Positions 1 through 60,506 of a DNA stretch of 64,000 nucleotides are shown in pieces. The notes beneath the pieces were generated by a model. That model ran no database searches, was not told the origin of the DNA, and worked only from the letters and a program-made list of their open reading frames with translations. The position numbers and the translations under genes are program-made. How positions within the stretch are numbered: the first letter of the stretch is position 1; each line of letters opens with the position of its first letter. The stretch comes from a virus (taxonomy: Duplodnaviria > Heunggongvirae > Uroviricota > Caudoviricetes): IMG/VR virus record IMGVR_UViG_3300020451_002055; one strand, given 5' to 3'.

Positions 1-350
1 CGCGACCCCTCGAATGCTTCTCCGCCAAGACCCGCTTGCGGGTCTCCTCGTCCTCCCAAAGCTGGCGACGACATCCGTTGCGATGAATAGTTCTGCCCTT
101 GCGAAGATACTCTTTGCCTGCTTCAAGAGGTTGAGTTCCACTGCTCTCGATGACCTGAAGGGTGAACGTATGCTGCTGCTTGCCCAAGCCGTAGCTGTCC
201 TTCAAGATCTCGGCATGAACCAAACGAGTTCCGATCGGTTCGCCTTTTCCGGCAAGACTGCCTTCCGGATAGACGTTCTCCTCGAAGACGATCTTGTCGC
301 CAACGCAGACATCTCCGGCAGCATCGATGTATGAATCAGTGTCAGGCATG
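1..350 (-). CDS. hypothetical protein, N-terminal part (gene continues past window start)
   Basis: Minus-strand ATG at 350-348 preceded by GAAGGAAG RBS. The translation MPDTDSYIDAAGDVCVGDKIVFEENVYPEGSLAGKGEPIG... is protein-like. The plus-strand ORF 14..334 is its shadow. Confidence 0.5.
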
Positions 351-414
351 CAGTATTCTACTTCCTTCAACGATTCGGTGCAAGGCTCCGATCTCTCGAT
401 CAGAGAGCAAGGTC

Positions 415-1059
415 TCAGTCGAGAGTGCCCGCGATGACAACCTCATTCCTCTCGACGCAGCGGAACCATGTCCCCTTGAACCGCATGGCCCAATCCATAT
501 GCCAATGACCGAAATACCAGAACTTCGGCTGATGGATGTCTAGCATCTGATTCAGAGCGATCGCAGTCCTGTTCGACTCTGCCTCGCTTGAACCGTCAGG
601 GTTGATGGAACGAGCGGCCCCAATCAGTGCGCGATACAAGTAAAACGGAGCGTCATGGGTAACGACGATCTCGGGCTTGACCTGCTCGTAGAGCGTCAGC
701 ATGTCGCAGAGGTCTTGATAGCTCAACTGCTCGTCCTCCCACCACATGGGATGACAGTTGCGCTTCGCTGCAAGAGCCATACGACGCTTGATGTCGAAGT
801 CGGGCGTCTTGGCTCCGCTGACGTAGAAGATGCCCTTGTCGGTTACGCCATAGTCGCCGAGGTATGACGGATGGGCTCGGGCGACCTCGGGATCATCATG
901 ATTCCCGCGGATTGCCTTTCCGTTGTCAGGGAACTCGGGGATGGCTTGATGCGTCATCCCCCAACCCAGATCCCCGACCTGGATCCACCCATCTAACCCG
1001 TCGCCCAGGTCAAAGAGCAGATCAATATCGCCATGTACATCGCCGATGATTGCTGTCAT
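415..1059 (-). CDS. calcineurin-like metallophosphoesterase (lambda-phosphatase-type Ser/Thr phosphatase)
   Basis: GDVHGD, GDLxDRG-like (GDLGW) and GNHD motifs in order. The probable ATG start is MTAIIGDVHGD at 1059; the track start at 1110 is a TTG. Confidence 0.8.
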   Translation of the reverse strand: MTAIIGDVHGDIDLLFDLGDGLDGWIQVGDLGWGMTHQAIPEFPDNGKAIRGNHDDPEVARAHPSYLGDYGVTDKGIFYVSGAKTPDFDIKRRMALAAKRNCHPMWWEDEQLSYQDLCDMLTLYEQVKPEIVVTHDAPFYLYRALIGAARSINPDGSSEAESNRTAIALNQMLDIHQPKFWYFGHWHMDWAMRFKGTWFRCVERNEVVIAGTLD

Positions 1060-1313
1060 GCTGACCAACCTATCGGCGAGAGCTTCCACTCGATCGCAGG
1101 CGGTCACCAAATGACTTCAGCAGCCTGATGCGTCGAATCATCTCGGGCGAGAAAGTGGCAAAGACGCCGCTGCTCGATCTGCAGAGCAGCCTGTCGCCAA
1201 ACTCTCGGACCGGAGTCCAATCGGTGAGATCGCCTCGAAGAGGGAACGGAAAGCTTGATGTGTCGAACGTACTCATGACCGACAGTTGGCCGCAAGCGCT
1301 GTCGGTGTCAGGA

Positions 1314-1880
1314 CTAATACGTTCCAAGCGGTTCTTCGCAGCCGACCTCAACTTGTCCAGGGCGGTGGTAGTAGCCCGTGCTGTCCTCGACAACCCTCAA
1401 GGCATCCATGCTGTCTGCCTGCCTCAACAGGTCGCAAGCCATGCGATGACTCTCTGAGCAATCGTCAGGTCTGTCGGTGAAGCGAGGATCGAGAGTGACG
1501 ACAGTCGAATGCCAAAAGGCAAGCCCGTCCCATGGCGTTACAAAGTCCTGTCCGCCGGGCGCTGTAACCACAGTGGGATATTGAGCGAACCCGACGAACA
1601 TCAAACGCTTATTGGGAAGCTGACATCCGAAACCAGAGAATCGTTCAGGTAGGAAGCTCAGAAGCCTGCCATTTGCCAGCGCGATGCCCTGTGCCTGTCT
1701 CTTGAGGGCTGCCATCGGATCTTTCGGACCTACCTGACAGTCCTTTCCCTCAAATGTCAGAATCTTGCTCACTCCTCTGAACATCTGTTCTCGGGCGAAG
1801 AGGTGAAGTTGATGAAGAACGCTAGTCTGCCTCCCCAAAGGAACGCAGAGCGAGAAGCGAAGAATGTTGTCGTTGCTCAT
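1314..1880 (-). CDS. hypothetical protein
   Basis: 188-aa ORF, protein-like composition, no motif recognised. Confidence 0.4.
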   Translation of the reverse strand: MSNDNILRFSLCVPLGRQTSVLHQLHLFAREQMFRGVSKILTFEGKDCQVGPKDPMAALKRQAQGIALANGRLLSFLPERFSGFGCQLPNKRLMFVGFAQYPTVVTAPGGQDFVTPWDGLAFWHSTVVTLDPRFTDRPDDCSESHRMACDLLRQADSMDALRVVEDSTGYYHRPGQVEVGCEEPLGTY

Positions 1881-2052
1881 GGCTGGTATCCCAGATTAGA
1901 CTGATTCAACGGGTTTCTGCATTCTACACTCAATGTGTTGCACCCGCTAGCGATCTGTCTGTCCCCGGAACTTTCGCTCCAAATAGGCTCGTGGATGCTT
2001 CAAACGATCCAAACGAGCGTGATTATAGCAGAATCAGCTTCTACTCAAGCGG

Positions 2053-2637
2053 TTAAGCGGACATTTTCTCAATGTCGCGAAGATAATCGGCGACTTTGGC
2101 CCTTCCAAGCTGCTCAGCGAGTTCCAGGGGCGTAGAACCTCCGCAAAGAGCAACAGGTGACGCTCCCTCCTCCTCGATCAAACGACGAACTTCTTCGATG
2201 TCGTCCGATAGCATGATTGCTTGACCGACCTGCGTCATGCCATTCGGTAGAGGCTTGTCGATGTCAGGCGTGACCTCAATCGGATCGAACCCGAACTGAC
2301 ATGCGAAGTCCCGCTCCATGTCCAAGATGCGCTCGAAGTGATCGTTGTCGTAGGGAGTCGCGCTGGGCTTGTAGAGGTTGAAATACTCCATGATCAACGC
2401 ATCCGGGTCATGAGCCATCGAGATCGAGATGTCGAAGTTGATGTTACGCTCATGCGCAACCTTGCGAGCATCAGAGGCATTCGCCGGAAGCTCCCGAAAC
2501 TTCTTCGCAGCGATCGACCGCGCCATCGAGATGAACTTGTTGACGTTGATCCTCGAATCCAGCCCTTTCAGGTGATCAGCGAACTCCTGAGAGGTCGGGT
2601 CGATTAGGCGCTCTTCCGTGCCGCGTTTACTTCCCAT
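2053..2637 (-). CDS. hypothetical protein with one ankyrin-like repeat at the C-terminus
   Basis: C-terminal GASPVALCGGSTPLELAEQLGRAKVADYL resembles the ANK consensus; otherwise unknown. Confidence 0.4.
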   Translation of the reverse strand: MGSKRGTEERLIDPTSQEFADHLKGLDSRINVNKFISMARSIAAKKFRELPANASDARKVAHERNINFDISISMAHDPDALIMEYFNLYKPSATPYDNDHFERILDMERDFACQFGFDPIEVTPDIDKPLPNGMTQVGQAIMLSDDIEEVRRLIEEEGASPVALCGGSTPLELAEQLGRAKVADYLRDIEKMSA

Positions 2638-2833
2638 GATTATTGCCCCAATGATGTGTCACCCCTAGTCCTTGGGGCAATCGTTATGGAGACCACTATA
2701 GCAGATTGCTCGACCGCATGAACTCCCTTTCAGACGGGTGTCATGATTTTTCATCTTTCTCGCGGCGGTAGCGTCACCCGATGTATCAACCGACATCTAT
2801 CCGACAAAGGCAACAGAGTTATCCACATCGGGT

Positions 2834-4426
2834 TCAAACATCCAGAGCGGCAAGCTCAGACTTGATCCGACGCAGAACCGCCTGAGTATCGTACTGCTTG
2901 TCGATCTCGGTCAGCGTATTGCCCCATGTCTCGTTATGAGCATCGACCCGAGCATGAGCAGCTTCGTGCTTGGCGATCGCCAACAGAGCCAACAGGTCGC
3001 CCTTGTTTGTCAAACGATACCTGGTCTTGGTTCCATCGACCGGGTTGAGACAGAAGACATGGCAGCCGCCCGTATCGAGATGGCAGCCCTCCTGCCAGCC
3101 GAAGACCCAACCAACCGACCAGGAAATGTCGCGGTAGTTGAACTCATCAACCAAGACCCGAAGAGCCTCTTCGATGGCGATCTTCCATGCGATCAGCAGA
3201 CGGTAAGCCTCGCGTCCGCGCTTGTAGGGGATGTACTCGTCGCCGCTCGTCTTGACCTCATGAGTCCAGTTCTCCGGGTTGAAACGATCGACAACCTTGT
3301 CCATCGCAGGATCGCCGGTCTCGTTGATGATCATGACATCGAAGAGATCAGGAGCAAACCGGTCGCCCGGCATCGGCTCGGAGCGAACCTCGATGACGCG
3401 AGCCGTAGGAGAGATCGGAGCTAAGGCAGCAGAGCGAGGAGTAACGACATCGCCTCCGCTGATCGTAGCGATCGGAGAGAACTCGCCCTCAGTCTCGATC
3501 GGAGCAGTCGATCCGGCCTTGCCTTGACGATGCTCGTCATCAAGCTGACGCTGCTCATCGGTCCGCTTGCCAAGCATCATCATACGACCGGAGCCGCTGA
3601 TGATACGACGAGTCTCGCGGTTGCGATCGCGGAGAGCGCTCCGGTCATCGACCGTAAGCTCGTCGATCCAACGATTGACCTCAGAGCGGAAATCGCCAAC
3701 GAACTCGTTGCGGTTGGCAGCCAAAACCTCTCGGGCACGATCGGGATCAATCTCAACAACGACCTGCTTCTTGCAGTTGACATGACGCCAGAACATCATG
3801 AGACCGCCGACCCGAAAGATGACGCGGTTGGCAAACGTGCCCGAACGATTGACATGGATGCCAGCGAACGAAAGCTCGCGGACGCGACGACCTCGGTCGA
3901 TGTAGTCGGAGAAGACCTCGCCGTTGATGCGAACCATGACGCCAGAGCGATCCAAAGAGCAGCAGCGGAGATACTCATTGAGATGACGACGCATCTCGTC
4001 GATGGTGGTATCCGACATCCAAACTCGAATGATGCAGCCGTCCTGACGCTCGATGTCGTCGATCATGTACTCGCCGCCCGTGCCGCGGACATGATTGGTC
4101 AGGGTCTCGATTTCGTACTTGTCATGACCGAAGCATGTCATGATGCGGGCTCGACCGAAGCCTCCGATGGAACCTCCGCCAGTCTTGGTCGTCTCGCCAA
4201 GAGCGAAGTAAACTCGGTCGAGGACATCGCGCGTCATGCCGCAGCCATTGTCTGCGACAGAGATGCGAATCTGTCCGCCTCCGCAATCGGTCAGGCTGAC
4301 CTCGATGCGGTTGGCTCCGGCATCGACAGAGTTCTGCAGAAGCTCTCGCCAGAAATCCGGCTTCCAGTTGTAGAGCTTCTTCCGCTCGTCGATGAAGAAC
4401 TGATGGGGAACTGTAATCGTCGGCAT
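2834..4426 (-). CDS. GHKL-superfamily ATPase (MutL/MORC/Hsp90-like Bergerat fold) with C-terminal HExxH
   Basis: N-box ELLQNSVDAGA, G1 box DNGCGM and G2 box GGGSIGGFGRA within the first ~100 aa. The C-terminus has HEAAHARVDAH (HExxH). AAAGGAG RBS lies upstream of the ATG at 4426. Confidence 0.7.
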   Translation of the reverse strand: MPTITVPHQFFIDERKKLYNWKPDFWRELLQNSVDAGANRIEVSLTDCGGGQIRISVADNGCGMTRDVLDRVYFALGETTKTGGGSIGGFGRARIMTCFGHDKYEIETLTNHVRGTGGEYMIDDIERQDGCIIRVWMSDTTIDEMRRHLNEYLRCCSLDRSGVMVRINGEVFSDYIDRGRRVRELSFAGIHVNRSGTFANRVIFRVGGLMMFWRHVNCKKQVVVEIDPDRAREVLAANRNEFVGDFRSEVNRWIDELTVDDRSALRDRNRETRRIISGSGRMMMLGKRTDEQRQLDDEHRQGKAGSTAPIETEGEFSPIATISGGDVVTPRSAALAPISPTARVIEVRSEPMPGDRFAPDLFDVMIINETGDPAMDKVVDRFNPENWTHEVKTSGDEYIPYKRGREAYRLLIAWKIAIEEALRVLVDEFNYRDISWSVGWVFGWQEGCHLDTGGCHVFCLNPVDGTKTRYRLTNKGDLLALLAIAKHEAAHARVDAHNETWGNTLTEIDKQYDTQAVLRRIKSELAALDV

Positions 4427-4481
4427 CCTCGACTCCTTTCGGGATACGCTGCAATCCTAGCATATTCGGTGATGGGCTGCC

Positions 4482-4495
4482 CACCCATCTTTCTC
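4482..4495 (+). promoter_or_regulatory. conserved intergenic 14-mer CACCCATCTTTCTC (copy 1 of 4), candidate promoter element
   Basis: Exact 14-mer located 55 nt upstream of the minus-strand start at 4426 and downstream of two terminators. Confidence 0.35.
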
Positions 4496-4502
4496 TCCGG
4501 GC

Positions 4503-4525
4503 GCAAATAAAAGGGGCAGAGCCCC
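4503..4525 (-). terminator. putative rho-independent terminator
   Basis: Minus strand GGGGC-TCT-GCCCC followed by TTTTATTT. Confidence 0.4.
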
Positions 4526-4610
4526 TTGGAGAAGTCAACGCACCATCCAGCAACAAGCAAGGAGAGGTGGTCTGAATGCTTCTTTTGAGTGCCCGCAGGT
4601 TGGTAGAGAG

Positions 4611-4642
4611 AAAAGGGGCGGGCCTTGCGGTAGACCCGCCCC
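4611..4642 (-). terminator. rho-independent terminator downstream of 4670..5257 gene
   Basis: Minus strand GGGGCGGG-12 nt loop-CCCGCCCC followed by TTTT, 28 nt after the stop. Confidence 0.6.
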
Positions 4643-4669
4643 CTTGGGGATTCTGTCAGCCGTCAGGCG

Positions 4670-5257
4670 TTAGCCGATGGCCTTGAGAGCGGCCTTGGCC
4701 TCCCTCGAACCGGCAGCGGTCAGGGCGTAGACGCCGCGGCTGACGCGCTTGAGGTGGCCGTCGTTGACGAGGTTGCCGAGGGCCTGGTTGACGACCGTCC
4801 GCTGGCCCTTCTCGTCGCCGGTGAAGACGTAGTTGCAGGGCTTCGTCTGGACAGCGGCATGGACCTCGGAGATGTTGAACTCGGTCCCGCGCTCGCTCTG
4901 ATCCATCGAAATCAGGATGCAGTTGGAGAGGGTAGCCGCGCCGCCGCCGCGCTTCTCGCTCGCGCCGTTGCTGGTCCTCGTCGAACGCCGACGCGCCTTG
5001 GGAGCGGGCTCGGGATCCTCGTAGAGGTAGTCGATGGCCGAGAGATCGGGAGCCTCGAACTCCTCGACGCCGAACTCAGCGAGGCCGTCGTCGATCTGGC
5101 CCAACTGACCGGCGAGAGCCGTCATCTGCTCCATGACCGAAGCGCGAGCCTCGTTCAGATCGTTCATCGCCGCCTCGCGACGCTCGTTCGCGCCGGTGAT
5201 GGTCGCCGAAATGTCCAGGGTCGCCGCCGACCCACCGTTCTGGTTCTTGCCCGCCAT
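4670..5257 (-). CDS. hypothetical coiled-coil / basic protein, possible winged-helix DNA-binding C-terminus
   Basis: ATG at 5257 (MAGKNQ) with AAGGAG RBS. Coiled-coil N-terminus, Arg/Lys-rich linker and C-terminal globular domain. The track's longer N-terminal extension is unlikely. Confidence 0.5.
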   Translation of the reverse strand: MAGKNQNGGSAATLDISATITGANERREAAMNDLNEARASVMEQMTALAGQLGQIDDGLAEFGVEEFEAPDLSAIDYLYEDPEPAPKARRRSTRTSNGASEKRGGGAATLSNCILISMDQSERGTEFNISEVHAAVQTKPCNYVFTGDEKGQRTVVNQALGNLVNDGHLKRVSRGVYALTAAGSREAKAALKAIG

Positions 5258-5512
5258 GGTTTGTCTCCTTGTTGACTTGCGGACTCTGATGCTGCGTTGG
5301 ACGACGTTGCCCAACGCTGTTGACGAGATACATTTGATCTCGCCAGTATTCGGTGAACATCTCAATCTAGAACAGCCCTTCTGAGAAGTCAAGAAAATCT
5401 TTCTGAGAATCCTCAACTTAGCCGTTAGGGTTCCGTCCAGTCAGCCTAGATAAGAAAAGCCCCTCCAACCTTAGATCAGAGGGGCTTGAGAGTTTAGAAG
5501 ATGCGTGCCTGC

Positions 5513-6805
5513 TTAGTTGAGCAAAGTCAGGTCGCGCTCGGTCTGACGATGAGGCAGGACGAACTCATTGACCCGAGCCGCCATGCTGGTCTCGAACGCC
5601 GTCCGGTTGAACCCGTGATCGGCAACGCCGGTGATACCGCCGTCATACATGGCGAACGTCAGAGCCTTGTCCTCGGCGTTGCGGCGAGCCGCCATCGAAC
5701 CGAGGCCCTTGGCGGCATCGGTCATCAGGTTAAAGACATCCCATTCGGTTGCCAACTCGTCATCGCCGTAGGCGTTCTTGCCGAGGTCGTGGCAACGCTC
5801 GTAGAACTCCTCGTTGATGTCGCCGCGGTCGCGGATGATGCCGAGGACATCGAACGCCGACTTCTCGCCGTCGCCGATCTGACGATGCTGCAACGCCTGA
5901 AGCGAAGTAGCGATCAGACCCGCAAACGGGAATGCGATCGAAGCCATCGAATCGAGCGATGCCTTGACATCCTCGAACGTCGTGGAACGCCGCATCTGGA
6001 ACGAACCGAACGCGAAGTCCTGATCCGTGCAGCCGTTGGCGCACCACATTCGCCAGACGCCGATGGATGCCCGAGGCATGAACGCCCGGACATCGGACGT
6101 AGAGAGGTTGAGCATCGTGTAGAGCCGCTTGGTCGGCTCTCGCTCAGACTCGATCATGATGGGGTTGCCGAAGAGGATTCGGAACTCCATGCCGCCCTGA
6201 CTGTTGGACTCGAACATCTCAACGCCGCGGATGATATCTCCGAAGCGCTCCATGATCGCCCGCATCGCGTTCGCGACGAAGATGTTGGAATCGGTACGGT
6301 CGATGTCGTCGCGCATAACGCCCTCGACGATCCGGCCCGTCCCGCTGTCGTTCGTGCGGAACATCAGGTTGAAGTCATCCGAACGGCGTGCCCGGAAGAA
6401 CGACGCGAAGTCGGCGAGGAAGTGGCGAGGGCCATGCTCGCCCATCTTCTGATAGCGGCTGTAGCCGCCCTTGGCATCCATCAAGCCCGCAAGCTGATTG
6501 ACAGCCCGGTTGGACATGGGAATCGGGCCATGCTCTCGAACATGGAGCCCGAGCCCGGCATCGATGTCGGGCGCGATGCTGAAGAGGGAATCGGAAGAGG
6601 GATCGATCTGGAGCCCAAGATGCTCGCCGCCCTCGACAAGCAAGTCCTGGCGACCATTGGCGATGCGGTTGAGCCGATTGAGACAATCGGTCGGGTGCAT
6701 CATACGGCGGGTCACGTTGTCCGTGACATCGACAGGGCGATCGTCCGTGACGAAGCGCTCCTGATCCCCTTCCATGATGGTCGGGATTTCTGCATACGTC
6801 GGCAT
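5513..6805 (-). CDS. hypothetical protein (430 aa)
   Basis: ATG at 6805 with AGAAAGGAAACC RBS. Protein-like; no motif recognised, and a capsid assignment cannot be supported. Confidence 0.5.
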   Translation of the reverse strand: MPTYAEIPTIMEGDQERFVTDDRPVDVTDNVTRRMMHPTDCLNRLNRIANGRQDLLVEGGEHLGLQIDPSSDSLFSIAPDIDAGLGLHVREHGPIPMSNRAVNQLAGLMDAKGGYSRYQKMGEHGPRHFLADFASFFRARRSDDFNLMFRTNDSGTGRIVEGVMRDDIDRTDSNIFVANAMRAIMERFGDIIRGVEMFESNSQGGMEFRILFGNPIMIESEREPTKRLYTMLNLSTSDVRAFMPRASIGVWRMWCANGCTDQDFAFGSFQMRRSTTFEDVKASLDSMASIAFPFAGLIATSLQALQHRQIGDGEKSAFDVLGIIRDRGDINEEFYERCHDLGKNAYGDDELATEWDVFNLMTDAAKGLGSMAARRNAEDKALTFAMYDGGITGVADHGFNRTAFETSMAARVNEFVLPHRQTERDLTLLN

Positions 6806-6997
6806 TAGGTTTCCTTTCTGAGAGTGGGTCCGTCTTAGCCGAACTGATTGCCGGACAACGCTGCCCGGCTGACAGCATACAGTATAGCAGACTTGGATTC
6901 GGTGAGCAAGCCACCCGTCAAATAGACAACGCCCGGGCATAGTGCCCGAGCGTTGCGCCCAAAGGATGCTTGTCTGAGGCAGCCTAGGGTCTGGTCT

Positions 6998-8368
6998 TTA
7001 CTCGGCCTCAGCCTCAGCCTCAGGCTGGCGAACAGCCGGGCGACCGCTGGCTCCCTCGATCGCGGCGAGGATGCTCGCAGCCGTCGAGCCGGACGAATGG
7101 CCGCCCGTCCGAGATGAGAGACGGGTCAGGTCGGGCTTGTCAGGGGCGGTCATCACCTTGCCCTCGTCAAGCTCGATCGTCTTGGGGCCATGCTTCCAAC
7201 GGACAGGCTTCAACTTCTCGCCGCCGCGATTCTTGTCGAAGATCAGGTTGACCCGAGCGTCGTTATGCTCATCGGGAGACCCGAGAATGATTGCATCGAC
7301 CGAGTGCCCGAACATCGACGAACCCTTCAACTCGCCCGAGGACTTCGAGATATGCGAGATGATGAACGCCGTGCACCCGGTTTCAACCAGCATCTCGTTG
7401 AAGCGGAGCATGCCATCGCGAACTCGACCATCCGGACCCTGGAACTCATGGATCATGTCCTTCGAGTCGATGACCAAGAAATCAGGTTCATCTCGGCGGA
7501 CAAGGAACTCGACCTCATCGAGCAAACCGACCTGTGCGAAGTCAACGGCGACCTGACCGGGCTTCCAAACGCCTCGCAGGAACATCGAGCGGAAGCGGGC
7601 CATCTGGGGAACCTCAGACTGGATGTAGAGGCCGGTATGTCCGCCGAACTCAACGCCGTCCTCGCGGGTCTGACGCGGGCCGCACATGTCGCGGAGCAAA
7701 CGAACCATCAAGCGGGTCTTGCCCGTTCCCTTCTTCGCGCCGAAAGCATACGAGAAGCCGCGAGCGATGCCATGAGACTCGACCTCGACAGGCTTGCGCT
7801 TGCCCTTGGGAACGATCTCATCGACAGTCGTGCCGAACCATTGATCGAGAACCGGATGGAAGGTCGGGATACGCTCGATCGGCACATCCTCGCCCTCTTC
7901 CCAACTGACAGTCTCGGCTCCGCCGGTTCGGGCAACAGCCGAACTCCGGGCCTCAGCCGCCCGCCAACCGTCCTCGACCTTCTTTCGGGTCTGGCGAACC
8001 TGCTCGCGGAGACGCTGGTTGCGGAGCTTATGGTACGCATCCGCATCGGTCAGCGTATCGCCGTCGAGCAGAGCGGCCCAAGCCTTGCGGCCCTTCTCGC
8101 TCGTGCTGCGCTTGATCTGATCGTTGATGTAAGCGACCCGATCGCCAGTCGTGGGGATATCCCAACCATACTGGTCGGCGATCGCGTTCCGCTCGCCATC
8201 GTCGAGGATCGCGTCGAGATTGTCGCGCTGACGAAGCAGATGCTCCATGATCTCGGCGTTGGCATTCGCGCCGACCATATTGTGCATCGTGATCAGATTC
8301 TCGATGAGTGCCTGATTGCTCAGAGATGCGGTTCGAAGGGCGGGCTTGGGCTTTGACTGACGGGCCAT
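6998..8368 (-). CDS. DnaB-like / RecA-fold replicative helicase ATPase
   Basis: Walker A FGAKKGTGKT, Walker B FLVIDS, SQL-like IISHISKS and H4-like DKNRGG. ~200-aa N-terminal domain. ATG at 8368 with AAAGGAG RBS. Confidence 0.55.
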   Translation of the reverse strand: MARQSKPKPALRTASLSNQALIENLITMHNMVGANANAEIMEHLLRQRDNLDAILDDGERNAIADQYGWDIPTTGDRVAYINDQIKRSTSEKGRKAWAALLDGDTLTDADAYHKLRNQRLREQVRQTRKKVEDGWRAAEARSSAVARTGGAETVSWEEGEDVPIERIPTFHPVLDQWFGTTVDEIVPKGKRKPVEVESHGIARGFSYAFGAKKGTGKTRLMVRLLRDMCGPRQTREDGVEFGGHTGLYIQSEVPQMARFRSMFLRGVWKPGQVAVDFAQVGLLDEVEFLVRRDEPDFLVIDSKDMIHEFQGPDGRVRDGMLRFNEMLVETGCTAFIISHISKSSGELKGSSMFGHSVDAIILGSPDEHNDARVNLIFDKNRGGEKLKPVRWKHGPKTIELDEGKVMTAPDKPDLTRLSSRTGGHSSGSTAASILAAIEGASGRPAVRQPEAEAEAE

Positions 8369-8442
8369 GGGAAACTCCTTTGGGTTTGGGTTGCGTGCCT
8401 CAGACGACCTACAGCCCTTGCCTCTCGGTTTCGGTGAACCCA

Positions 8443-9165
8443 TCAGCCCTCCGCCTCTGCTTTGACCTTCTCTCCTGTACTGGTAGTAGAGGCCTTGCCG
8501 ACAGCCCTCTCAACCGCAACAGCCATGCTCTCCGAGCCGCCAGTACCCTCCGTCACCGAATATCCCGCCCGAATCTTGACTGACGGAACATACGACCTGC
8601 GACGAATTTCGCGGATGGGAAGAACTTCCTCCCCAGTCGGAATCCCCGTCCGCAAACGGAGACGCATCTCCTGCTGAGTCCCAAGGACATCAATGCAGGC
8701 ATTCAACTGAGCGAGCTTCAGCCCATAAGGGTTGGCTCCGCCCAATCGCTGAAGAACACGGATGTTCTGATGAACCTTCTCAATGACGTTCTTCCCAGTC
8801 ACTTGCGACCGGAGAGGACGCCCCGTGAACGACTCCCATGGCGTCTTGCCGTCCTTCCCAACCAAGGAAGGATCAGTCATGACCTCCATGAACTTCGCCC
8901 AAAACGCAGCAAACGAATGCTCCTCGTTCTCGCCCAACAGAGAGAGCGTCTCAACGATGCCCCAGTAACCGCCTCCTCTGCGGTAAGGAGCAACGAAGCG
9001 CCCCGCCTCGTCTGCTTGGCCTCGGAACTTCGCCTGATCATCCATGCTCATGTGGTGGCGACGAACTCTGCCCATCTCTCCGGTCCTTGTAGGTACTGTC
9101 TCAGCACGCTGACTAATAGGCAATGCCGCTTCAGCAGCGTGATCCGAGTAAACTGTCTTGCTCAT
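8443..9165 (-). CDS. hypothetical protein, paralog of 58338..58889
   Basis: Shares KDGK...L(Q/T)R(L/S)GG(A/S)NPYG(L/K)(K/R)L and YW.I blocks with the 58338 ORF. Probable ATG at 9165. Confidence 0.45.
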   Translation of the reverse strand: MSKTVYSDHAAEAALPISQRAETVPTRTGEMGRVRRHHMSMDDQAKFRGQADEAGRFVAPYRRGGGYWGIVETLSLLGENEEHSFAAFWAKFMEVMTDPSLVGKDGKTPWESFTGRPLRSQVTGKNVIEKVHQNIRVLQRLGGANPYGLKLAQLNACIDVLGTQQEMRLRLRTGIPTGEEVLPIREIRRRSYVPSVKIRAGYSVTEGTGGSESMAVAVERAVGKASTTSTGEKVKAEAEG

Positions 9166-9273
9166 TGTTGATGCGTCCCGTAATCGGTGTCCGACCAGGC
9201 TCCAAGTCCTGCTAACGCCAGACGCATTCAACACCCATCTTACTTGATCGCTATTACACCAGCGAGCCTCCTT

Positions 9274-9287
9274 CACCCATCTTTCTC
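9274..9287 (+). promoter_or_regulatory. conserved intergenic 14-mer CACCCATCTTTCTC (copy 2)
   Basis: Exact repeat in the divergent intergenic region between the minus gene ending at 9165 and the plus Fic gene. Confidence 0.3.
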
Positions 9288-9324
9288 TACCCGCGAATTC
9301 CCGCACTCATCTTACCCGAAGCCG

Positions 9325-9338
9325 CACCCATCTTTCTC
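9325..9338 (+). promoter_or_regulatory. conserved intergenic 14-mer CACCCATCTTTCTC (copy 3)
   Basis: Exact repeat 103 nt upstream of the plus-strand start at 9441. Confidence 0.3.
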
Positions 9339-9440
9339 CACTGTCAACCAATAGAGACAAACCGGTCCGAATAGCCCTTGGGCATCGACTTCGCGGAACA
9401 AATGCGGAGAGATTGGGGCGGCTGACTTCCATTATACCAA

Positions 9441-10250
9441 ATGTCGGACCATGCGTGTCCGGACCATGAAAAAATCGTCACTCGGTCTGCAGATTTTTGT
9501 CGATACACAGGTATGACTGAACTCGATCCGACAACCATGCGCGTATTCCCAGAGCCGTCCCAGGACACGCTCATCGCATTCATCTACCATACCAACCGAA
9601 TCGAACGTATCCCGATGAATAAGCGCGACATCGAGGACGCCATCGCCCAAAGAGAACCAAACCCCTACGTCGAAGGACATCTCCGCGCCATCACCCTCGT
9701 ACAACAACTCGCTCCCGATCCAAAACTACTGCCCGAACGGGTAAACACAATCTTCGAGTTCGATGAGAAGTTCCCATGGCTCAAAAGACTCCACCGCAAC
9801 CTCATGAGACCGGTCGCCGAGTTCGGAGTCATGACCCTCGACCCCTCAATCATCCATCCAACCGATGTCGGCTCCTACCGACAAACAGCCAAGTCCATCA
9901 GAACCGAACGAGACAACATGATCATCGATGTCGAAATGCCAGGACCATTGACCATCAGAGAACATCTCCGAGATTGGGCCAACGACCTCTGCTCCTTCCA
10001 TAATGACATGCGACGAACCATCGAGTACGGTCGCTACTCAGACAGCGATACCGAAGCCCTCGTAGATAAGGCCTACGAAGCAAACCTCAAGCTGTCCTGC
10101 ATCAAACCATTCACGGATGGCAGCAACAGAACAGGACGACTCGTTGAGAATCTGCTCAGACTCAACTGGGGACTGCCTTGGAAAATCATCAGCCTCGATG
10201 ACAAAGATCAACTACTCGATGACCTACGCAATATGCAATCGAGATTTTAG
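9441..10250 (+). CDS. Fic/Doc (Fido) family protein with degenerate active-site motif
   Basis: CIKPFTDGSNRTGRLVENL aligns to HPFx(D/E)GNGRxxR with H->K, N->S and G->N substitutions. It is the only plus-strand gene in this 10-kb stretch. Confidence 0.5.
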   Translation: MSDHACPDHEKIVTRSADFCRYTGMTELDPTTMRVFPEPSQDTLIAFIYHTNRIERIPMNKRDIEDAIAQREPNPYVEGHLRAITLVQQLAPDPKLLPERVNTIFEFDEKFPWLKRLHRNLMRPVAEFGVMTLDPSIIHPTDVGSYRQTAKSIRTERDNMIIDVEMPGPLTIREHLRDWANDLCSFHNDMRRTIEYGRYSDSDTEALVDKAYEANLKLSCIKPFTDGSNRTGRLVENLLRLNWGLPWKIISLDDKDQLLDDLRNMQSRF

Positions 10251-10337
10251 CAACTACATCTGACTGTTAGTAAGGCGTTATTGAACAACTGCCTTACAAA
10301 TTGGGCACTTGCTAGAAATCCTTGCCAAAAGTCTGTC

Positions 10338-10351
10338 CACCCATCTTTCTC
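10338..10351 (+). promoter_or_regulatory. conserved intergenic 14-mer CACCCATCTTTCTC (copy 4)
   Basis: Exact repeat immediately 5' of the direct-repeat array. Confidence 0.3.
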
Positions 10352-10375
10352 CGTCACCGAAATGGATGTCAGGAG

Positions 10376-10740
10376 TTCGTCGTACAGTGGAACATTCCCG
10401 TACAGTGGCAGGATATTACCCGATCATCCCATTCGGTGCTAGAACCTGATGTCATTCGGTGCTACCTCGTACAGTGGCCCGATTCGGTGTTAGACTATAC
10501 ACGAAAGCAAAACCCTTCGAATCCCGAAGGGGAGCCTGAGGGGATGAGGGATCACAGAGGTTCCTCTGCTCTCCCATTCGGTGCTAAGAAATGAAAAATG
10601 AGGGTACGGACGATTCGATGCTTGCATCGAAGCGGCTGCTGAGTCCGAAGGACGAAGCGTACCTCATCCATTCGGTGCTACGCCTCGATTCTCTCGGCAT
10701 AGACGAGAGCTACAATTCTCTCCCATTCGGTGCTAGAAAA
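10376..10740. repeat. direct-repeat array: 6 copies of CCATTCGGTGCTA-type 13-mer plus 3 copies of CGTACAGTGG
   Basis: 13-mer copies at 10428, 10453, 10480 (degenerate), 10573, 10667 and 10722. The two outer units extend to CTCTCCCATTCGGTGCTA(A)GAAA. Spacers are irregular (about 12-80 nt). Embedded perfect hairpins TTCGATGC-TT-GCATCGAA and GGTACG...CGTACC lie near 10602-10664. Confidence 0.7.
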
Positions 10741-10776
10741 CGGAGAACCTAGCATGAGGAGACTATCGGTGATAGT

Positions 10777-11511
10777 CTACTCATCCTTAAGCAGCCTCTT
10801 CTTATCTTCCTCAAACTTCTCTACCTGAGACAGAAGACTCATAGATCTTTGGGTAGGATCAGTGCGCGAACGCAATTTCACAACGCTCTCCGAAGGTATC
10901 CATTCCGCGGGAAAAGTTGAACTAGCCAACACCAACTGATTACCCTTACCCAAAGCATGACGAGTCAAATGAGTATAGAAACTCTTACGACTCTCGTCGT
11001 CCAAACCCCTGTCCCAATCATCTACCAAGATAACAGAATCCCGCACATCCCTCATATGCAAATCGTAGACTACAGGGAAGACAGAACATACAGATTCAGA
11101 CAACTGACTGCCCCGTCGTACAGTGGAACGAGTTACGCCAGTACGCTCTGCTGAATAATAAACGATACCGTTTTTGACATGAGGTTTGTCGCCAACGCTT
11201 ACGTCCGCAGCCTTCGCCAGAGTCGCGCTCTTGTCCAAACGACCCCTACGAATATGAACTCCGCAAATCTCTCGCCCTACCTCGTAGTCAATACGAAGCA
11301 TGTCAGCTACATAAGGAAGTTCCGTACTCCCGCCAGACAAAACTGAACTGCTCCAACCACGAGCTATGCTGCTCATGATGTAAGACTTGCCGCTACCGTT
11401 CTTCCCAAAAAGCATAACGATATTCAGAATGTTACCGTCAGAGTCTTTGAACTCTAGGTTTGTGTCCTCGATATCCTTGCTTCCCCGGATATGGTAGCCT
11501 CGTAGTCTCAT
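10777..11511 (-). CDS. minimal ABC/SMC-like ATPase (AAA_21-like)
   Basis: Walker A LFGKNGSGKS and Walker B/D-loop ILVDDWDRGLDDES. 244 aa. Contains an exact copy of the 15-mer GTCGTACAGTGGAAC at 11115-11129, also found in the upstream repeat array. Confidence 0.65.
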   Translation of the reverse strand: MRLRGYHIRGSKDIEDTNLEFKDSDGNILNIVMLFGKNGSGKSYIMSSIARGWSSSVLSGGSTELPYVADMLRIDYEVGREICGVHIRRGRLDKSATLAKAADVSVGDKPHVKNGIVYYSAERTGVTRSTVRRGSQLSESVCSVFPVVYDLHMRDVRDSVILVDDWDRGLDDESRKSFYTHLTRHALGKGNQLVLASSTFPAEWIPSESVVKLRSRTDPTQRSMSLLSQVEKFEEDKKRLLKDE

Positions 11512-11514
11512 AGC

Positions 11515-11742
11515 TTATTCTCCCGTTACCTCGTAGCGACAGCCCCCGATTATGATGTAACTTTTCCCGTTGCTGTCCTTGATGATCTGCTTCCTTATAT
11601 CATCGACGTAATCGGGAATACGCTTTGGAAGCTCTGGCGGCTGTTTCGGAGCTAAGAAATCAGGCCAACGTCTTCTGATGTAGATAGCCAACATCAAAGG
11701 AACAGAAAGGATCGCTATACTCAAAACTGACCCGACTATCAT
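11515..11742 (-). CDS. small membrane protein, in operon with the ABC-like ATPase
   Basis: 75 aa with an N-terminal TM helix. Its stop abuts the ATPase start with a 3-nt gap. Confidence 0.45.
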   Translation of the reverse strand: MIVGSVLSIAILSVPLMLAIYIRRRWPDFLAPKQPPELPKRIPDYVDDIRKQIIKDSNGKSYIIIGGCRYEVTGE

Positions 11743-12103
11743 TTCGTTTTCCGCCGTTCCTCAATAAGACCTAAGAACCCGTTCCTTAGATCATAAATCC
11801 CTCGTTACTATAATCTTTTGCATTGTAAGAAGCGTGTTTCTTAGTACATCTTTTCGCAATTAAGAAGTCGGGTAAGTGAACCTGAATTAGATCCTCTAAC
11901 TTTTTCGATGTCAGGTTATGCTTCATGATGGTTCAAAATGGGGCTGTGTGGGTAGAAGTGGGGCATATTCCCATGTTCTCCCATTTCCCTATCGTACTCC
12001 AGAGCCCCCCAAACCCCATTTTCCACGCCAGCAGACCCTTTCAGCTTTGTCAGGTTCCTGTATTTTCTAACGTTTAGCAGTTTCATAGGTATTAGGAGGG
12101 GTA

Positions 12104-13402
12104 TTAGAAGCCATATCCGTCATCTGGATCGTCCTCATCTTGGTTGCTTATTGCCCATCGTCTGAGGGCCTCATCTTTGGCATCGATCTTGGGTTTGAGG
12201 TGTTGTCTGTAGAGGCTGCTATTCTTCCCTGCTTTGACGATGATTCCGTTCCTCTTGGCCTCCCTACAGAAGTCTGTCGAGGCCTTGACGAACCCTCGCC
12301 TTTCGAGGACATATCCCGCTCCCTCTTCAGCCGTCTCAAGCCTCGTAAACTCTAGTACAACTTTTGACTGTTCTATGAGTCTTTCGGGCATGTAATCATG
12401 GAAGGGCATGGTCTCATATACGGACCTCAGGATGTAGTCTGCGGCATGGGCCATGGACGCATATCCGAAGGCCACGCAGTCTAGCGATTGAGCTATCCGA
12501 CCGGAGTATAATCTTTGGCAGTTGTGGTTATCTGAGACCAAGCTCTTCTTGCTCTGGCATGCTTCGAAGAAGTTGAGGGCGTCCTCGTATCTTGAGATGG
12601 GATCGAGGGTTCCTTTGAGGGCTGCTGAGGAGGTAGCTTCGATGGCGACATGGCGGTTGCCGTCCCTGTTAAACTTTCCCGGTATGAAGGGAGTCGGGAG
12701 GGCAGCCGTTACTGTCTGCGGCGTTGCTATGTAGCCTCCGGGTCTGACCTCAAGATCATCGAGATCCGGCTGCTGAATTACTTCAACTTTTGGCAGTATC
12801 TCGTATCCTTGCATGGTCAGGATCGAGGCATACGAAGCTATGAGATTGGCGACGATGGAGAGGGCTGGTTCTCTCAGAGTTCTCTCGTTGTGTTCTCTGA
12901 GTCTGAGTAGTCCGAGGGGTATGACGTTGGGTAGTCCTGATCCTTCGTTGTTTCGTTCTTGGGTGACGAGTTCTTCTGAGATGAGGGCAACGATCCCGAT
13001 GTCTGTGGTGTTGAAGTATCCTGAGCCATCTCTTTCGATGACGGAGGCTTTGATGACTGAGGCGATCATCGGGGAGTTGATTTGGAGTATTTGTTCGAGT
13101 TCGTATGGTGAGAGGGCGTTCATGGGGGCGGGCACGACATAAGCTGCTCCCTGAGCGGACATATACTCGAAATCGCAGTTTTTGAGATACTCAGACGTAG
13201 AAACGACCCCATCCATGAACTGAGGGTCTTTCTTGGCTTGTTCTGCTCTCTCAGCTTCCATTTCAGCTATCTTCTTCTTCCTACCGTATTCTTGGGAGAT
13301 AGCCATGTTTGATCTTCTCTGATGCATCTTCTGGTTCATGTGGGTCATGTTATTGGACTTCCCGAGGCTTTGGAGTCTTTTGATGAGATCGTAGCGGGAC
13401 AT
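12104..13402 (-). CDS. hypothetical protein (432 aa)
   Basis: Long ORF with protein-like composition in the lower-GC segment; no motif recognised. Confidence 0.5.
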   Translation of the reverse strand: MSRYDLIKRLQSLGKSNNMTHMNQKMHQRRSNMAISQEYGRKKKIAEMEAERAEQAKKDPQFMDGVVSTSEYLKNCDFEYMSAQGAAYVVPAPMNALSPYELEQILQINSPMIASVIKASVIERDGSGYFNTTDIGIVALISEELVTQERNNEGSGLPNVIPLGLLRLREHNERTLREPALSIVANLIASYASILTMQGYEILPKVEVIQQPDLDDLEVRPGGYIATPQTVTAALPTPFIPGKFNRDGNRHVAIEATSSAALKGTLDPISRYEDALNFFEACQSKKSLVSDNHNCQRLYSGRIAQSLDCVAFGYASMAHAADYILRSVYETMPFHDYMPERLIEQSKVVLEFTRLETAEEGAGYVLERRGFVKASTDFCREAKRNGIIVKAGKNSSLYRQHLKPKIDAKDEALRRWAISNQDEDDPDDGYGF

Positions 13403-15470: not shown

Positions 15471-15803
15471 TCATTCTTCCGCGGAAACCGAGATTCTATC
15501 GAATCCATGGTTCGCTGCGGCCTCTAGTTTATCCGAGAGGGCCATAGCCTCTTCGGGCGTCATGAACATTGTACGGTCCGTGCCCTTCACTTGTATGATG
15601 ACGGGCGAGAGGCTCTTGTCGGTTCTGAGAACGATGGGAACGTCTTGGCTCTTCGTGAGTTTGTTATCGGGGATGAAGATTGTTCCGATGGCCCATCCAA
15701 TGAAAAAGCAGACGGGCAGCATGATGATATGAAGAACGTAGGGCGGGATGCCCGGTTCTATTCTTACTGTCCGAACCTGCGTGCGATACTGATAGTCGCT
15801 CAT
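15471..15803 (-). CDS. membrane protein
   Basis: 110 aa with one TM segment. Confidence 0.4.
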   Translation of the reverse strand: MSDYQYRTQVRTVRIEPGIPPYVLHIIMLPVCFFIGWAIGTIFIPDNKLTKSQDVPIVLRTDKSLSPVIIQVKGTDRTMFMTPEEAMALSDKLEAAANHGFDRISVSAEE

Positions 15804-28312: not shown

Positions 28313-28663
28313 TCAGTCAGATGCGTTTCTGATTTCAAGAACAGATTGAGGCGTAACCTTCTCGCCTCGTTCACGCAACTCTTCAACGACCTCAGAACAG
28401 AGAGGGCAAACGGGATTGAAGAATCCTTCGCCTTTCTCGTCGGGAATGACAGAGTTCAGATCGTTGTCGATTTCATGACCGCCGTAAGGAGTCCTGCAGA
28501 CAATACACGGACCCCATTCGTAGCCATGGCTCTGAGCATATACGCGATGACGCCAGCGAGGTTCATAGTTGTCAGGTTCGCTCCTGATGAACCCAATACC
28601 TGGGATAGCAGCAGCCATAAAAAGGATCAAGACAACCAAGATGACCTGTAGCGTTCGTCTCAT
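28313..28663 (-). CDS. small exported Cys-rich protein
   Basis: N-terminal signal/TM segment; CIVCRTPYGGHE ... CPLCSEVV. Confidence 0.45.
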   Translation of the reverse strand: MRRTLQVILVVLILFMAAAIPGIGFIRSEPDNYEPRWRHRVYAQSHGYEWGPCIVCRTPYGGHEIDNDLNSVIPDEKGEGFFNPVCPLCSEVVEELRERGEKVTPQSVLEIRNASD

Positions 28664-38523: not shown

Positions 38524-38745
38524 TCAGTTGGCCGCTATGATACTGCCATCCGGGTTGCACCTGTAGCGCTCAGATGTATCAACACCAGTAGGAGATCCAT
38601 CGCAGTTATGGAGCCGGTAAAGATTCGACTGGTTTCCATTCTTCAGAATGACTATCCAGATATTTGGAGCGGCCTCTACTATGTTTGCAATCGACTTGTC
38701 AGTCGTCATGATTTCTCCTGTTGTCTTAGCCCTTGAGAACAGCAA
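38524..38745 (-). CDS. small hypothetical protein
   Basis: 73 aa. Confidence 0.3.
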   Translation of the reverse strand: MLFSRAKTTGEIMTTDKSIANIVEAAPNIWIVILKNGNQSNLYRLHNCDGSPTGVDTSERYRCNPDGSIIAAN

Positions 38746-49723: not shown

Positions 49724-50155
49724 CTACATGGAGAGCAGTCGAGAAATCTTGGAGTTCAATCTCTCTACTTGCTCTCTGAACAAACTGATGGATTCGCCCG
49801 ACTTGACTACAGAGGACACATCCATATCGTCCTTTTCAATAAAGCCGTCTACTCGCAAGTTGATCAACTTACGCAAAGTGTCTTCCTTGGCCTGACCGGA
49901 CAGAATGAACACTTTGCTGTCGTTATCCTTTGCTCTGATAGATTTTGCGATTTCGACGCTCATTGACTTGCCGCCGAACATATCATCTACGAGATATATG
50001 TCATATGAGAAGTCGATTTTGGCTGAGTCAAACTTTTCAACGTGATCAATGACGAACTCAAGCTCGTGATTGGCTTCGTCAAGATACTCGGAGATCAGTT
50101 CAAGTACGTCAGCATCATCGTCGATGAGAAGTATTTTGATAGTGTTGTTAGCCAT
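49724..50155 (-). CDS. stand-alone response-regulator receiver domain protein
   Basis: ILLIDDDADV, DIYLVDDMFGG, VFILSGQ...K; 143 aa. Confidence 0.75.
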   Translation of the reverse strand: MANNTIKILLIDDDADVLELISEYLDEANHELEFVIDHVEKFDSAKIDFSYDIYLVDDMFGGKSMSVEIAKSIRAKDNDSKVFILSGQAKEDTLRKLINLRVDGFIEKDDMDVSSVVKSGESISLFREQVERLNSKISRLLSM

Positions 50156-60434: not shown

Positions 60435-60506
60435 GCGGGCGTAACTCAATGGTAGAGTGTCAGCCTTCCAAGCTGAATGTTGAGGGTTCGAGTCCCTTCG
60501 CCCGCT
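60435..60506 (+). tRNA. tRNA-Gly (anticodon UCC), CCA not encoded
   Basis: Hand-folded cloverleaf. Acceptor GCGGGCG/CGCCCGC, D arm ACTC/GAGT, anticodon stem TCAGC/GCTGA with loop CTTCCAA, and T arm GAGGG-TTCGAGT-CCCTT. Confidence 0.85.

Follow-up and report, generated by a model that had tools for sequence, protein, structure and literature searches.

A conserved, co-oriented array of short boxes as a candidate control region beside a small ABC-type ATPase gene of an uncultured marine phage

Introduction

Hardly anything is known of how huge phages that have not been cultured regulate their genes, because almost none of their proteins is annotated. A stretch of 64,000 nucleotides from a tailed virus (Caudoviricetes; IMG/VR record IMGVR_UViG_3300020451_002055), referred to here as the window, raises the question in concrete form: between a gene for a minimal ATPase of the ATP-binding cassette (ABC) type and an oppositely oriented gene for a Fic-fold protein lies an array of short direct repeats. 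Which genes do these repeats serve, and in what way? In an initial annotation, it was suggested that they could be iterons or operators controlling the ATPase gene and its small membrane-protein partner, a pair described as typical of abortive-infection, defence or superinfection-exclusion modules, or else a decoy array. The comparison presented here indicates that the repeats most likely belong to a gene-control region rather than to a defence module. More specifically, the gap that holds them may be a conserved non-coding control region, in which a phage-encoded regulator of the neighbouring GC-richer block of genes would use the box as an asymmetric DNA operator, and the array would be an operator cluster with tandem terminators at a domain boundary. 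This is the leading explanation, held at somewhat less than even confidence.

The box array in the intergenic gap

The gap is 526 bp long (10251-10776; first given as 525 bp) and extends from the stop codon of the Fic-like gene at 10250 (plus strand) to that of the ATPase gene at 10777 (minus strand). The six 13-mer copies, three sister-box copies and hairpins initially counted in it hold up with minor corrections. The 13-mer CCATTCGGTGCTA is found exactly at 10429, 10574, 10668 and 10723, with 1 mismatch at 10452 and with 2 mismatches at 10480; at up to 2 mismatches it has 7 matches in 64 kb, compared with 1.3 expected, a number reached in none of 100 shuffles. Two copies are indeed extended, with a shared exact stretch that is an 18-mer (CTCTCCCATTCGGTGCTA, at 10569 and 10718) and not a 22-mer, the copies differing beyond those 18 nt. 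The sister box CGTACAGTGG is exact at 10381, 10399 and 10468 in the gap and at 11117 within the ATPase gene. The recurrence in that gene, described as a 15-mer at 11115, is real and amounts to an exact 16-mer, CGTCGTACAGTGGAAC, shared between 10378-10393 and 11114-11129. A third box, CACCCATCTTTCTC, lies at the array end (10338) and also occurs four times at 9232-9338 and once at 4482. The three motifs are called here the C box (TAGCACCGAATGG in minus-strand reading), the B box and the A box. The array of this genome thus contains nine boxes, six C and three B, and each of the other arrays described below contains 7-13 when near-variants are included. In minus-strand order, and with X and Y denoting two hairpin elements, the features are the following.

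10723..10735, minus strand: C box, the first copy past the ATPase stop codon
10668..10680, minus strand: C box, directly 5' of element X
10597..10668, minus strand: element X, a three-way hairpin followed by UUUUUCAUUUCU (U-tract)
10574..10586, minus strand: C box between elements X and Y
10503..10531, minus strand: element Y, a terminator-like hairpin CCCTTCGGGATTCGAAGGG (hairpin 10531-10513) followed by TTTTGC
10480..10492, minus strand: C box, variant TAACACCGAATCG
10468..10477, minus strand: third B box
10452..10464, minus strand: C box with 1 mismatch
10429..10441, minus strand: C box, the last direct copy, which pairs with the inverted copy at 10355-10365
10381..10408, minus strand: two B boxes, CCACTGTACG in minus-strand reading, the sister 13-mer to the C box
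10355..10365, plus strand: single inverted C-like copy, CACCGAAATGG on the plus strand
10338..10351, minus strand: A box closing the array, GAGAAAGATGGGTG in minus-strand reading

A coding array was considered and rejected: stop-free stretches match on both strands and in shifted frames, and the box is present in all three frames of the open reading frame (ORF) 10322-10594. Translation of that ORF had been named as an outcome that would speak against a repeat function; its frame is not conserved, which bears out the description of the gap as non-coding.

Conservation of the array across lineages

Relatives were found via contigs that encode homologues of the ATPase. Tara Oceans scaffolds of up to 486,833 bp carry a gene for the identical ATPase, and the copies recovered in this way (L002-L007) match the window at 100% identity and give no comparative information. 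Among 5.8 billion proteins searched, just 13 further members of the ATPase family were found, 50-69% identical. The arrays compared are those of the window and of eight divergent syntenic relatives, nine lineages together, in which the shared order is transmembrane (TM) peptide, ATPase, a gap of 445-935 bp, Fic-like gene on the opposite strand, 240-amino-acid (240-aa) protein, ATPase of RecA/KaiC/DnaB fold (helicase-like), 430-aa protein, 195-aa protein and GHKL ATPase. Further family members were not found in pattern scans of IMG/VR, JGI metagenomes and GTDB genomes: the patterns CCCATTCGGTGCTA, three spaced CACCGAAT cores and CACCGAAT...GGGWTTCGAAGGG gave only chance or coding matches, unaccompanied by the other motifs, in these viral, metagenome and genome collections. 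Queries with the ATPase and Fic proteins in IMG/VR returned no useful related loci, and blastn of 9100-12100 against phage and plasmid collections returned no match.

In all eight relatives, the same gap carries the array, which answers the concern that the repeats might be missing from related genomes with conserved flanking genes. Each of the nine arrays has 4-9 cores CAC(C/T)GAAT, 59 altogether, and every one of the 59 lies on the gene-sense strand. A consensus built from the 56 cores with sufficient flanks describes the C box, in minus-strand reading, as T-(A/T)-(G/C)-CAC-(C/T)-GAAT-(G/C)-G, an asymmetric motif of 13 bp. The sister (B) box, ...CACTGTACGG, is also a 13-mer, T-n-(G/C)-CACTGTAC-G-G, with 16 copies across the arrays. 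Both kinds are intermixed in L300, where five boxes abut one another, four of them at a 13-nt period. The inverted box is present in seven of the nine arrays (none was detected in L133) and can pair with a direct copy to form a hairpin in most genomes; usually it lies shortly 5' of the terminal A box (AAAGATGGGTG; AAAGATG(G/A)GTG), while it follows the A box in L130 and is located mid-array in L300. In L301, an IS200/IS605 insertion sequence at 1309-3048 (Y1 transposase and a 390-aa ORF on the same strand) has entered between the ATPase stop codon and the array, and the array is intact.

The array also coincides with a change in base composition. In every genome, GC content steps by 5-14 points at the array and is higher from the 240-aa gene onward than on the ATPase side; in the window, the values are 0.579 (1-9165) and 0.504 (10777-64000), and the step is also seen in L128, L130, L132 and L133.

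Spacing between boxes is partly regular. The same distances, 62-63 and 93-95 bp, separate boxes in different genomes even where the inserts differ, which hints at a spacing constraint acting on DNA, with the limit that the copies are not independent. Over the nine lineages, adjacent-box spacings range from 13 to 167 nt and cluster at 13-20, ~31, ~47, 62-63 and 93-95 nt; a unit of 94 nt is kept around two different inserts, X and Y. For the spacings of all nine arrays, the Rayleigh R is 0.39 at a period of ~15.7, compared with 0.16 at 10.5.

Boxes at promoters outside the array

The strongest indication of what the boxes do comes from their single copies. Eleven copies of the core CACCGAAT are found in the window, compared with 2.1 expected (reached in 0 of 100 shuffles), ten of them on the minus strand. 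All eleven lie within 373-10732, and the remaining 53 kb of the window has none. The four minus-strand cores outside the array occupy successive intergenic regions; three of these, and the A boxes nearer to the array, are located as follows.

9232..9338, minus strand: four A boxes in the divergent region between the Fic and 240-aa genes
6897..6904, minus strand: C core before the 430-aa gene, followed by N10 and TATACT
5348..5355, minus strand: C core at the 195-aa gene, 8 nt downstream of a tool-called sigma-70-like promoter TTGACT-17-TAGATT
4464..4495, minus strand: A box and C core between a called terminator (4527-4511) and the GHKL ATPase gene start at 4426

At the remaining core (373, minus strand), a sequence TTGCAC-17-TAGAAT starts three bases before the core and overlaps it. 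These arrangements recur in relatives. Before the 430-aa gene, the core is followed after exactly 10 nt by TATACT or TAGAAT in four of five genomes. At the GHKL gene, a terminator is followed by the A box, the C core, a -10-like hexamer (TAGGAT), a Shine-Dalgarno sequence and ATG; the core lies 45 nt before the start, and the terminator-A-C order is kept in L128 and L130. In L128, L130, L132 and L133, single sense-strand cores keep their distance upstream of three genes: 29-70 nt for the helicase-like gene, 90-109 nt for the 430-aa gene and 45-49 nt for the GHKL gene. Fifteen single sense-strand intergenic cores were counted in these four relatives, and almost none on the ATPase side. Copies in the arrays differ from these: a -10 box at the corresponding spacing follows 4 of 59, against a background of 5.6%, which means that array copies are without a -10 box.

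Because the 430-aa and GHKL cores lie between an upstream terminator and a -10 hexamer, they would be in untranscribed promoter DNA, and recognition of duplex DNA is therefore the simplest reading. The distance from core to -10 varies by gene, so the box would act as an operator rather than as a fixed promoter element. A role as a fixed -35 or sigma element was rejected on the same variable distance and on the array copies that have no -10 box. Similarity to the 5S rRNA loop E, sigma-54 -24 elements (TGGCAC), the SlmA site, LexA boxes and CsrA GGA motifs was also considered and dropped, spacing or sequence being unsupportive.

The A box is located at variable distance upstream, has 3-4 repeats in the Fic/240-aa divergent region, and in relatives is often preceded by the palindrome TTCCGCGGAA. 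This palindrome lies directly 5' of A boxes at 15516-15530 in L128, at 2320-2334, 3553-3567 and 8410-8425 in L130 and at 2642-2656 in L300; the window has one exact copy, at 15477-15486, distant from every A box. An antisense CACCGAAT lies at 8554-8561 (plus strand) in the 3' part of the 240-aa gene, and has counterparts in L128 (11428), L130 (4321) and L133 (8045). It is the sole recurrent antisense copy and provides codons for (G)YSV, and could either work as an inverted site or simply follow from conservation of the peptide.

Hairpins in the array and the possibility of a structured RNA

Conserved hairpins are embedded between the boxes. The order X, C box, Y is found in all lineages except L303, and the core of element Y, GGG(A/T)TTCGAAGGG (as RNA, GGG(A/U)UUCGAAGGG), is kept in eight of nine arrays, L303 again being the exception. 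In the second hairpin of X, pairing is kept despite sequence change: RNAalifold reports double changes in four of five pairs, pairing holds in 95% of cells, and covariation scores 0.64 compared with 0.23 in shuffles (reached in 0 of 500), slid controls giving at most 0.12. The terminator-like hairpins of the arrays lie on the sense strand, and several array hairpins have UUCG loops. Hairpins of the gap include one at 10611-10634. The gap as a whole folds better than shuffled sequence (z = -2.7); folding energy gave no choice of strand because both strands fold similarly. Across the ATPase stop codon lies another stable hairpin.

10751..10787, minus strand: hairpin of 17 bp across the ATPase stop codon, z = -4.1

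At the other end of the gap, an inverted repeat GATTTTAGCAA ... TTGCTAGAAATC at 10243-10325 encloses ~80 nt 3' of the Fic gene. The first of its arms overlaps the stop codon of that gene, 10271-10298 forms an inner hairpin, and the arrangement is kept in L128, L301, L303 and L304.

These hairpins raise the possibility that the array works as RNA, either as the minus-strand 3' untranslated region of the TM-ATPase operon or from a promoter of its own. Such a structured non-coding RNA could be a CsrB-like sponge, or its inverted copy could pair with the direct copies, as in the P4 CI and P1 c4 RNAs. The exclusive placement of the 59 copies on the transcribed strand, the covarying hairpins with UUCG loops and U-tracts on that strand, the hairpin formed by the inverted and last direct copies and the better-than-shuffled folding all fit such an RNA. 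Known regulatory RNAs of the CsrB/RsmZ and P4 CI/P1 c4 kinds likewise combine many copies of a short motif, a structured terminator-bearing non-coding stretch and one pairing inverted copy. However, the motif here is not GGA-based as in CsrB/RsmZ, single copies lie in untranscribed promoter DNA, and a search of Rfam 15 gives a single tRNA at gathering score for the whole window, with no meaningful match to 9100-12200 even at E <= 10. Roughly half of the boxes would lie downstream of two or three terminator-like hairpins, the 430-aa and GHKL promoter boxes would be outside the transcripts of those genes, the equal folding of both strands does not favour the transcribed one, and the insertion sequence of L301 parts the array from the upstream operon. 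An RNA is therefore considered an unlikely primary form of the array.

A proposed operator cluster at a domain boundary

In the favoured explanation, that of a DNA operator cluster, a phage-encoded, sequence-specific regulator would bind the asymmetric boxes as DNA. Single boxes in or beside the core promoters of the helicase-like ATPase (in relatives), 430-aa, 195-aa and GHKL genes would place the bound protein where it blocks or modulates RNA polymerase, and in this way would control the gene block from the 240-aa gene onward. The array, placed between the ATPase-side genes and the regulated block, would be a promoter-less cluster of boxes, among which two or three hairpins resembling intrinsic terminators lie on the same strand. 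As a titration or nucleation site, it could keep many molecules of the regulator nearby and possibly loop to the single operators. Together with the terminators, it could also halt read-through from the upstream operon, which would otherwise run antisense into the Fic gene and the regulated block. The initial suggestion of operators or a decoy comes near to this reading; its other part, control of the ATPase/TM pair, is not supported, since the boxes lie at promoters of the other side and the L301 insertion sequence separates the array from the pair.

Several points weigh against this explanation. A box-binding protein was not found, and the one candidate, the 195-aa protein, gives a weak winged-helix match (E = 0.001-0.003). 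The strict co-orientation of the boxes with transcription, like the hairpins with UUCG-type loops, would also fit an RNA-level motif. Phage regulators do not usually have dense operator clusters without promoters. Depending on the gene, the core is found 4-5 nt or 10 nt from the -10 box or downstream of it, so no one mode of action stands out, and the boxes show no clear 10.5-bp phasing (Rayleigh R = 0.16). Lastly, the box scan covered 64 kb of a genome of ~487 kb.

The closest known principle is that of the stoperators of cluster A mycobacteriophages, where sites of 13 bp, asymmetric and located in intergenic regions and at promoters, lie in one orientation relative to transcription and are bound by a repressor of the L5 gp71 type, in a manner that fits a roadblock to RNA polymerase (PMC9283540, PMC6550527). 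The box described here is similar in being asymmetric and ~13 bp long, in having promoter and intergenic copies and in keeping one orientation relative to transcription. Stoperators occur one by one across the whole genome, whereas here 7-13 copies are packed into 500 bp; the locus has, besides, two sister boxes, an A box and a palindrome, and no repressor homologue was identified, binding being putative. Titration clusters such as datA or P1 incA, described below, are also close to this reading. The locus differs in four respects: its dense array, its two sister boxes, the conserved hairpins embedded in it, and its putative binder.

If the array is a titration site or roadblock, the stoperator principle would extend beyond mycobacteriophages. 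The locus offers a readable cis-regulatory code made of C box, B box, A box and palindrome, whose places with respect to terminators, -10 boxes and start codons are defined and which nine lineages share despite protein sequence differences of up to 50%. This code would delimit a co-regulated block of ~10 kb that encodes two ATPases, one of RecA/KaiC fold and one of GHKL type, along with a winged-helix-like protein and a Fic-fold protein whose active site is remodelled, and it points to a testable regulator-operator pair.

Replication origin or partition site

Clustered direct repeats next to a RecA/DnaB/KaiC-fold ATPase also recall an iteron-type replication origin, or a plasmid-like copy-control or partition site, where an initiator or a centromere-binding protein would occupy the repeats. 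The boxes at neighbouring promoters would then be autoregulatory, as DnaA boxes and P1 RepA iterons can be, and the hairpins, foldable in single-stranded DNA as in RNA, would be single-strand initiation signals or insulating terminators. The recurring spacings of ~63 and ~94 bp are near whole helical turns, and an ABC-type ATPase is encoded next door. Known titration or control clusters of initiator and regulator sites include datA of Escherichia coli, bound by DnaA, and the iterons of P1 incA and F incC, with sites of 9 bp or 19 bp and known initiators. The array resembles them as a promoter-less dense cluster of a site that is also found singly at promoters, beside genes of DNA metabolism; in contrast to them, an initiator, an unwinding element and DnaA boxes were not found here.

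Several observations speak against an origin. In the window array, no AT-rich unwinding element is present, the lowest GC over 50 nt being 0.42 compared with an array mean of 0.51, and DnaA boxes (<= 1 mismatch) are absent from all nine arrays. The 13-bp boxes abut at 13-14 bp in places, and their spacing is without 10.5-bp phasing. GC skew shows a local dip and no genome-scale turn at the locus. The helicase-like protein (PF13481; DnaB-like helicase in PHROG) has a RecA/DnaB/KaiC fold that fits RadA/KaiC about as well as DnaB, so a replication module is not established by it. Rep-family or ParA/ParB-type proteins were not recognised among the neighbours. The ATPase has an ABC fold with N-terminal strands (a beta-hairpin) and a classical Walker A, GKNGSGKS, instead of the deviant KGGxGK[ST] of ParA in type I (ParA-ParB-parS) systems, and its partner is a single-TM peptide, not a DNA binder. 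An origin or partition site is accordingly regarded as rather doubtful.

A broader formulation is that the array is not, or not only, made of DNA operators. It could be a structured non-coding RNA of ~400 nt, restricted to this family of huge marine phages and composed of up to a dozen 13-nt protein-binding boxes, two hairpin modules and one antisense copy, which would act as a sponge or immunity RNA in timing the gene block. Otherwise, it could be a replication or segregation site for the ABC ATPase with its membrane anchor. This formulation, too, is given only a small share of confidence.

The ATPase and membrane-protein pair

The genes on the other side of the array are described as follows.

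10777..11511, minus strand: minimal ABC-type ATPase of 244 aa with Walker A GKNGSGKS, signature-like motif LSESV and Walker B/D-loop ILVDDWDRGLD
11515..11742, minus strand: 75-aa protein with one N-terminal hydrophobic helix (single TM), its stop codon 3 nt upstream of the ATPase gene
11117..11126, minus strand: B box within the ATPase gene, in codons for the conserved peptide RSTVR, present in seven of ten family members

The size and Walker A motif of the ATPase and its close coupling to the 75-aa single-TM protein (3 nt apart) are as first described. The family shares the motifs GxNGSGK(S/T), an S-x-S signature-like sequence, (V/I)DDW-x-x-(G/S)LD and N-Q. The TM-gene/ATPase pair is syntenic in every relative where the TM side is present, and in relatives the kept 75-aa protein gene overlaps or abuts the ATPase gene. 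Structural comparison with PtuA-type ATPases had been recommended. The model of the ATPase (predicted local distance difference test, pLDDT, 75) has the fold of an ABC head, and its best Foldseek matches are PtuA (Septu/retron) and the OLD nuclease (E = 2e-5 to 1e-4). For PtuA (9e91_A), E is 2.4e-5 and the template-modelling score (TM-score) over the query 0.55-0.60; including OLD (6p74), best-match TM-scores are 0.49-0.60 over the query and 0.26-0.42 over the target, which limits the likeness to the ATPase head. The transporter domains FtsE and MacB (TM-score ~0.4) rank after PtuA and OLD.

Could the pair nevertheless be a defence, abortive-infection or exclusion module, with the repeats as its operators or decoy? 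In favour are the head fold nearest to PtuA and OLD, the match of the N-terminus to PADLOC models of PtuA and AriA, the B box inside the ATPase gene and 3-4 degenerate C-like boxes upstream of the TM-ATPase operon in L300 and L303. However, the matches to PADLOC and Pfam models are limited to residues 1-55 and fall under the Pfam cut-offs, and the window has no box upstream of that operon. The ATPase shares with PtuA, OLD, AriA and GajA the ABC/SMC-type head (N-terminal strands, GxNGSGKS, signature-like motif, Walker B and D-loop); unlike these, it has only 244 aa (390-600 aa in PtuA, AriA and GajA) and is without the inserted coiled-coil or oligomerisation domain. The position of the catalytic Glu after Walker B is an Asp (DDW, invariant), and there is no H-loop His. 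Among neighbouring genes, a nuclease, Toprim, HNH, helicase or other effector partner was not found, the neighbours being the 75-aa single-TM protein and a 432-aa protein without a family match. Moreover, the pair is syntenic wherever the TM side is present rather than part of a variable island, and the boxes follow the promoters of the other gene block. A defence module is thus improbable, and a tempting, unsupported label is removed from a small ABC ATPase. Nucleotide-binding domains of the FtsE/MacB/BceA type are similar in size (~230-250 aa), ABC fold and coupling to a membrane protein; here there is one TM helix as opposed to a permease of 4-10 helices, and the structural match is weaker than that to PtuA.

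For the B box in the ATPase gene, the same-codon fraction is 0.72, compared with a gene mean of 0.51; other windows of the gene reach 0.77, and three of ten relatives have no box. Nucleotide-level selection on it is weakly indicated, conservation being above average and not exceptional.

In CRISPR arrays, repeats of ~23-55 nt are spaced regularly by unique spacers of about the repeat length, and ToxIN-like systems have tandem repeats of 34-40 nt directly upstream of a ToxN/AbiF-type toxin gene on the same strand. A CRISPR-like mini-array or type III toxin-antitoxin (ToxI-like) repeat RNA, suggested by short direct repeats parted by hairpin-containing stretches, is scarcely credible, because the repeat has 13 nt at spacings of 13-167 nt, the "spacers" X and Y are themselves kept from genome to genome, the neighbouring ORFs gave no cas, ToxN or AbiF gene and Rfam no CRISPR-DR match, and no same-strand gene follows the array, an antisense gene coming first.

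Proteins of the GC-richer block

Two proteins of the block bear on the control region and are located as follows.

9513..10250, plus strand: Fic-fold protein (PF02661, 29.4 bits; alternative start 9441), the sole plus-strand gene in the stretch
4670..5257, minus strand: 195-aa protein with a weak C-terminal winged-helix signal (AbiEi_4, Mrr_N; E = 0.001-0.05)

The Fic protein had been called degenerate, and correctly so: PF02661 recognises the domain, and it has KPFxDGSNRxGR instead of the catalytic HxFx(D/E)GNGRxxR, with Lys for the catalytic His and GSN for GNG. The altered site is invariant in eight lineages that are 55-78% identical, and is therefore maintained by selection; judged by its motif, the protein is unlikely to be a canonical AMP-transferase. 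The 195-aa protein is a weak candidate for the box-binding factor. Its model has low confidence (pLDDT 57), and the fold search with it gave no significant match. With phmmer against the PDB, the 240-aa and 430-aa proteins gave no matches.

The leader before the 240-aa gene (9166-9231, minus strand) is near-identical in nucleotides across four lineages, its equivalents being L128 10760-10830, L132 10880-10936 and L300 2750-2803, and its reading frame is not kept. It contains a CACCGA(T/C)(T/C) variant of the box and an ATGCGTC/GACGCAT inverted repeat that ends a few bases 5' of the start codon, and may be a translational operator or another protein-binding site.

Genome context

Nearly all genes of the window lie on the minus strand. 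Besides those described, its functions include RtcB, an RNA ligase, tRNA-Gly, a DNA methyltransferase, a PAS histidine kinase, an SPFH protein, a rhomboid protease and a MoxR-like ATPase with a metallopeptidase/VWA-type partner. A capsid or terminase gene was not found within the 64-kb window. The gene content and the high share of family-less ORFs fit an uncultured huge marine phage as the source. The RNA-repair set (RNA ligase, RtcB, tRNA-Gly) and the PAS-domain histidine kinase are located at 28660-29478, 38726-40006, 60435-60506 and 50148-51962. Upstream of the TM-ATPase operon lies a long non-coding stretch (11743-12103, minus strand), with counterparts in L300 (1-578) and L303 (1-482), in which the motif GCCCCATTTTG is common across genomes.

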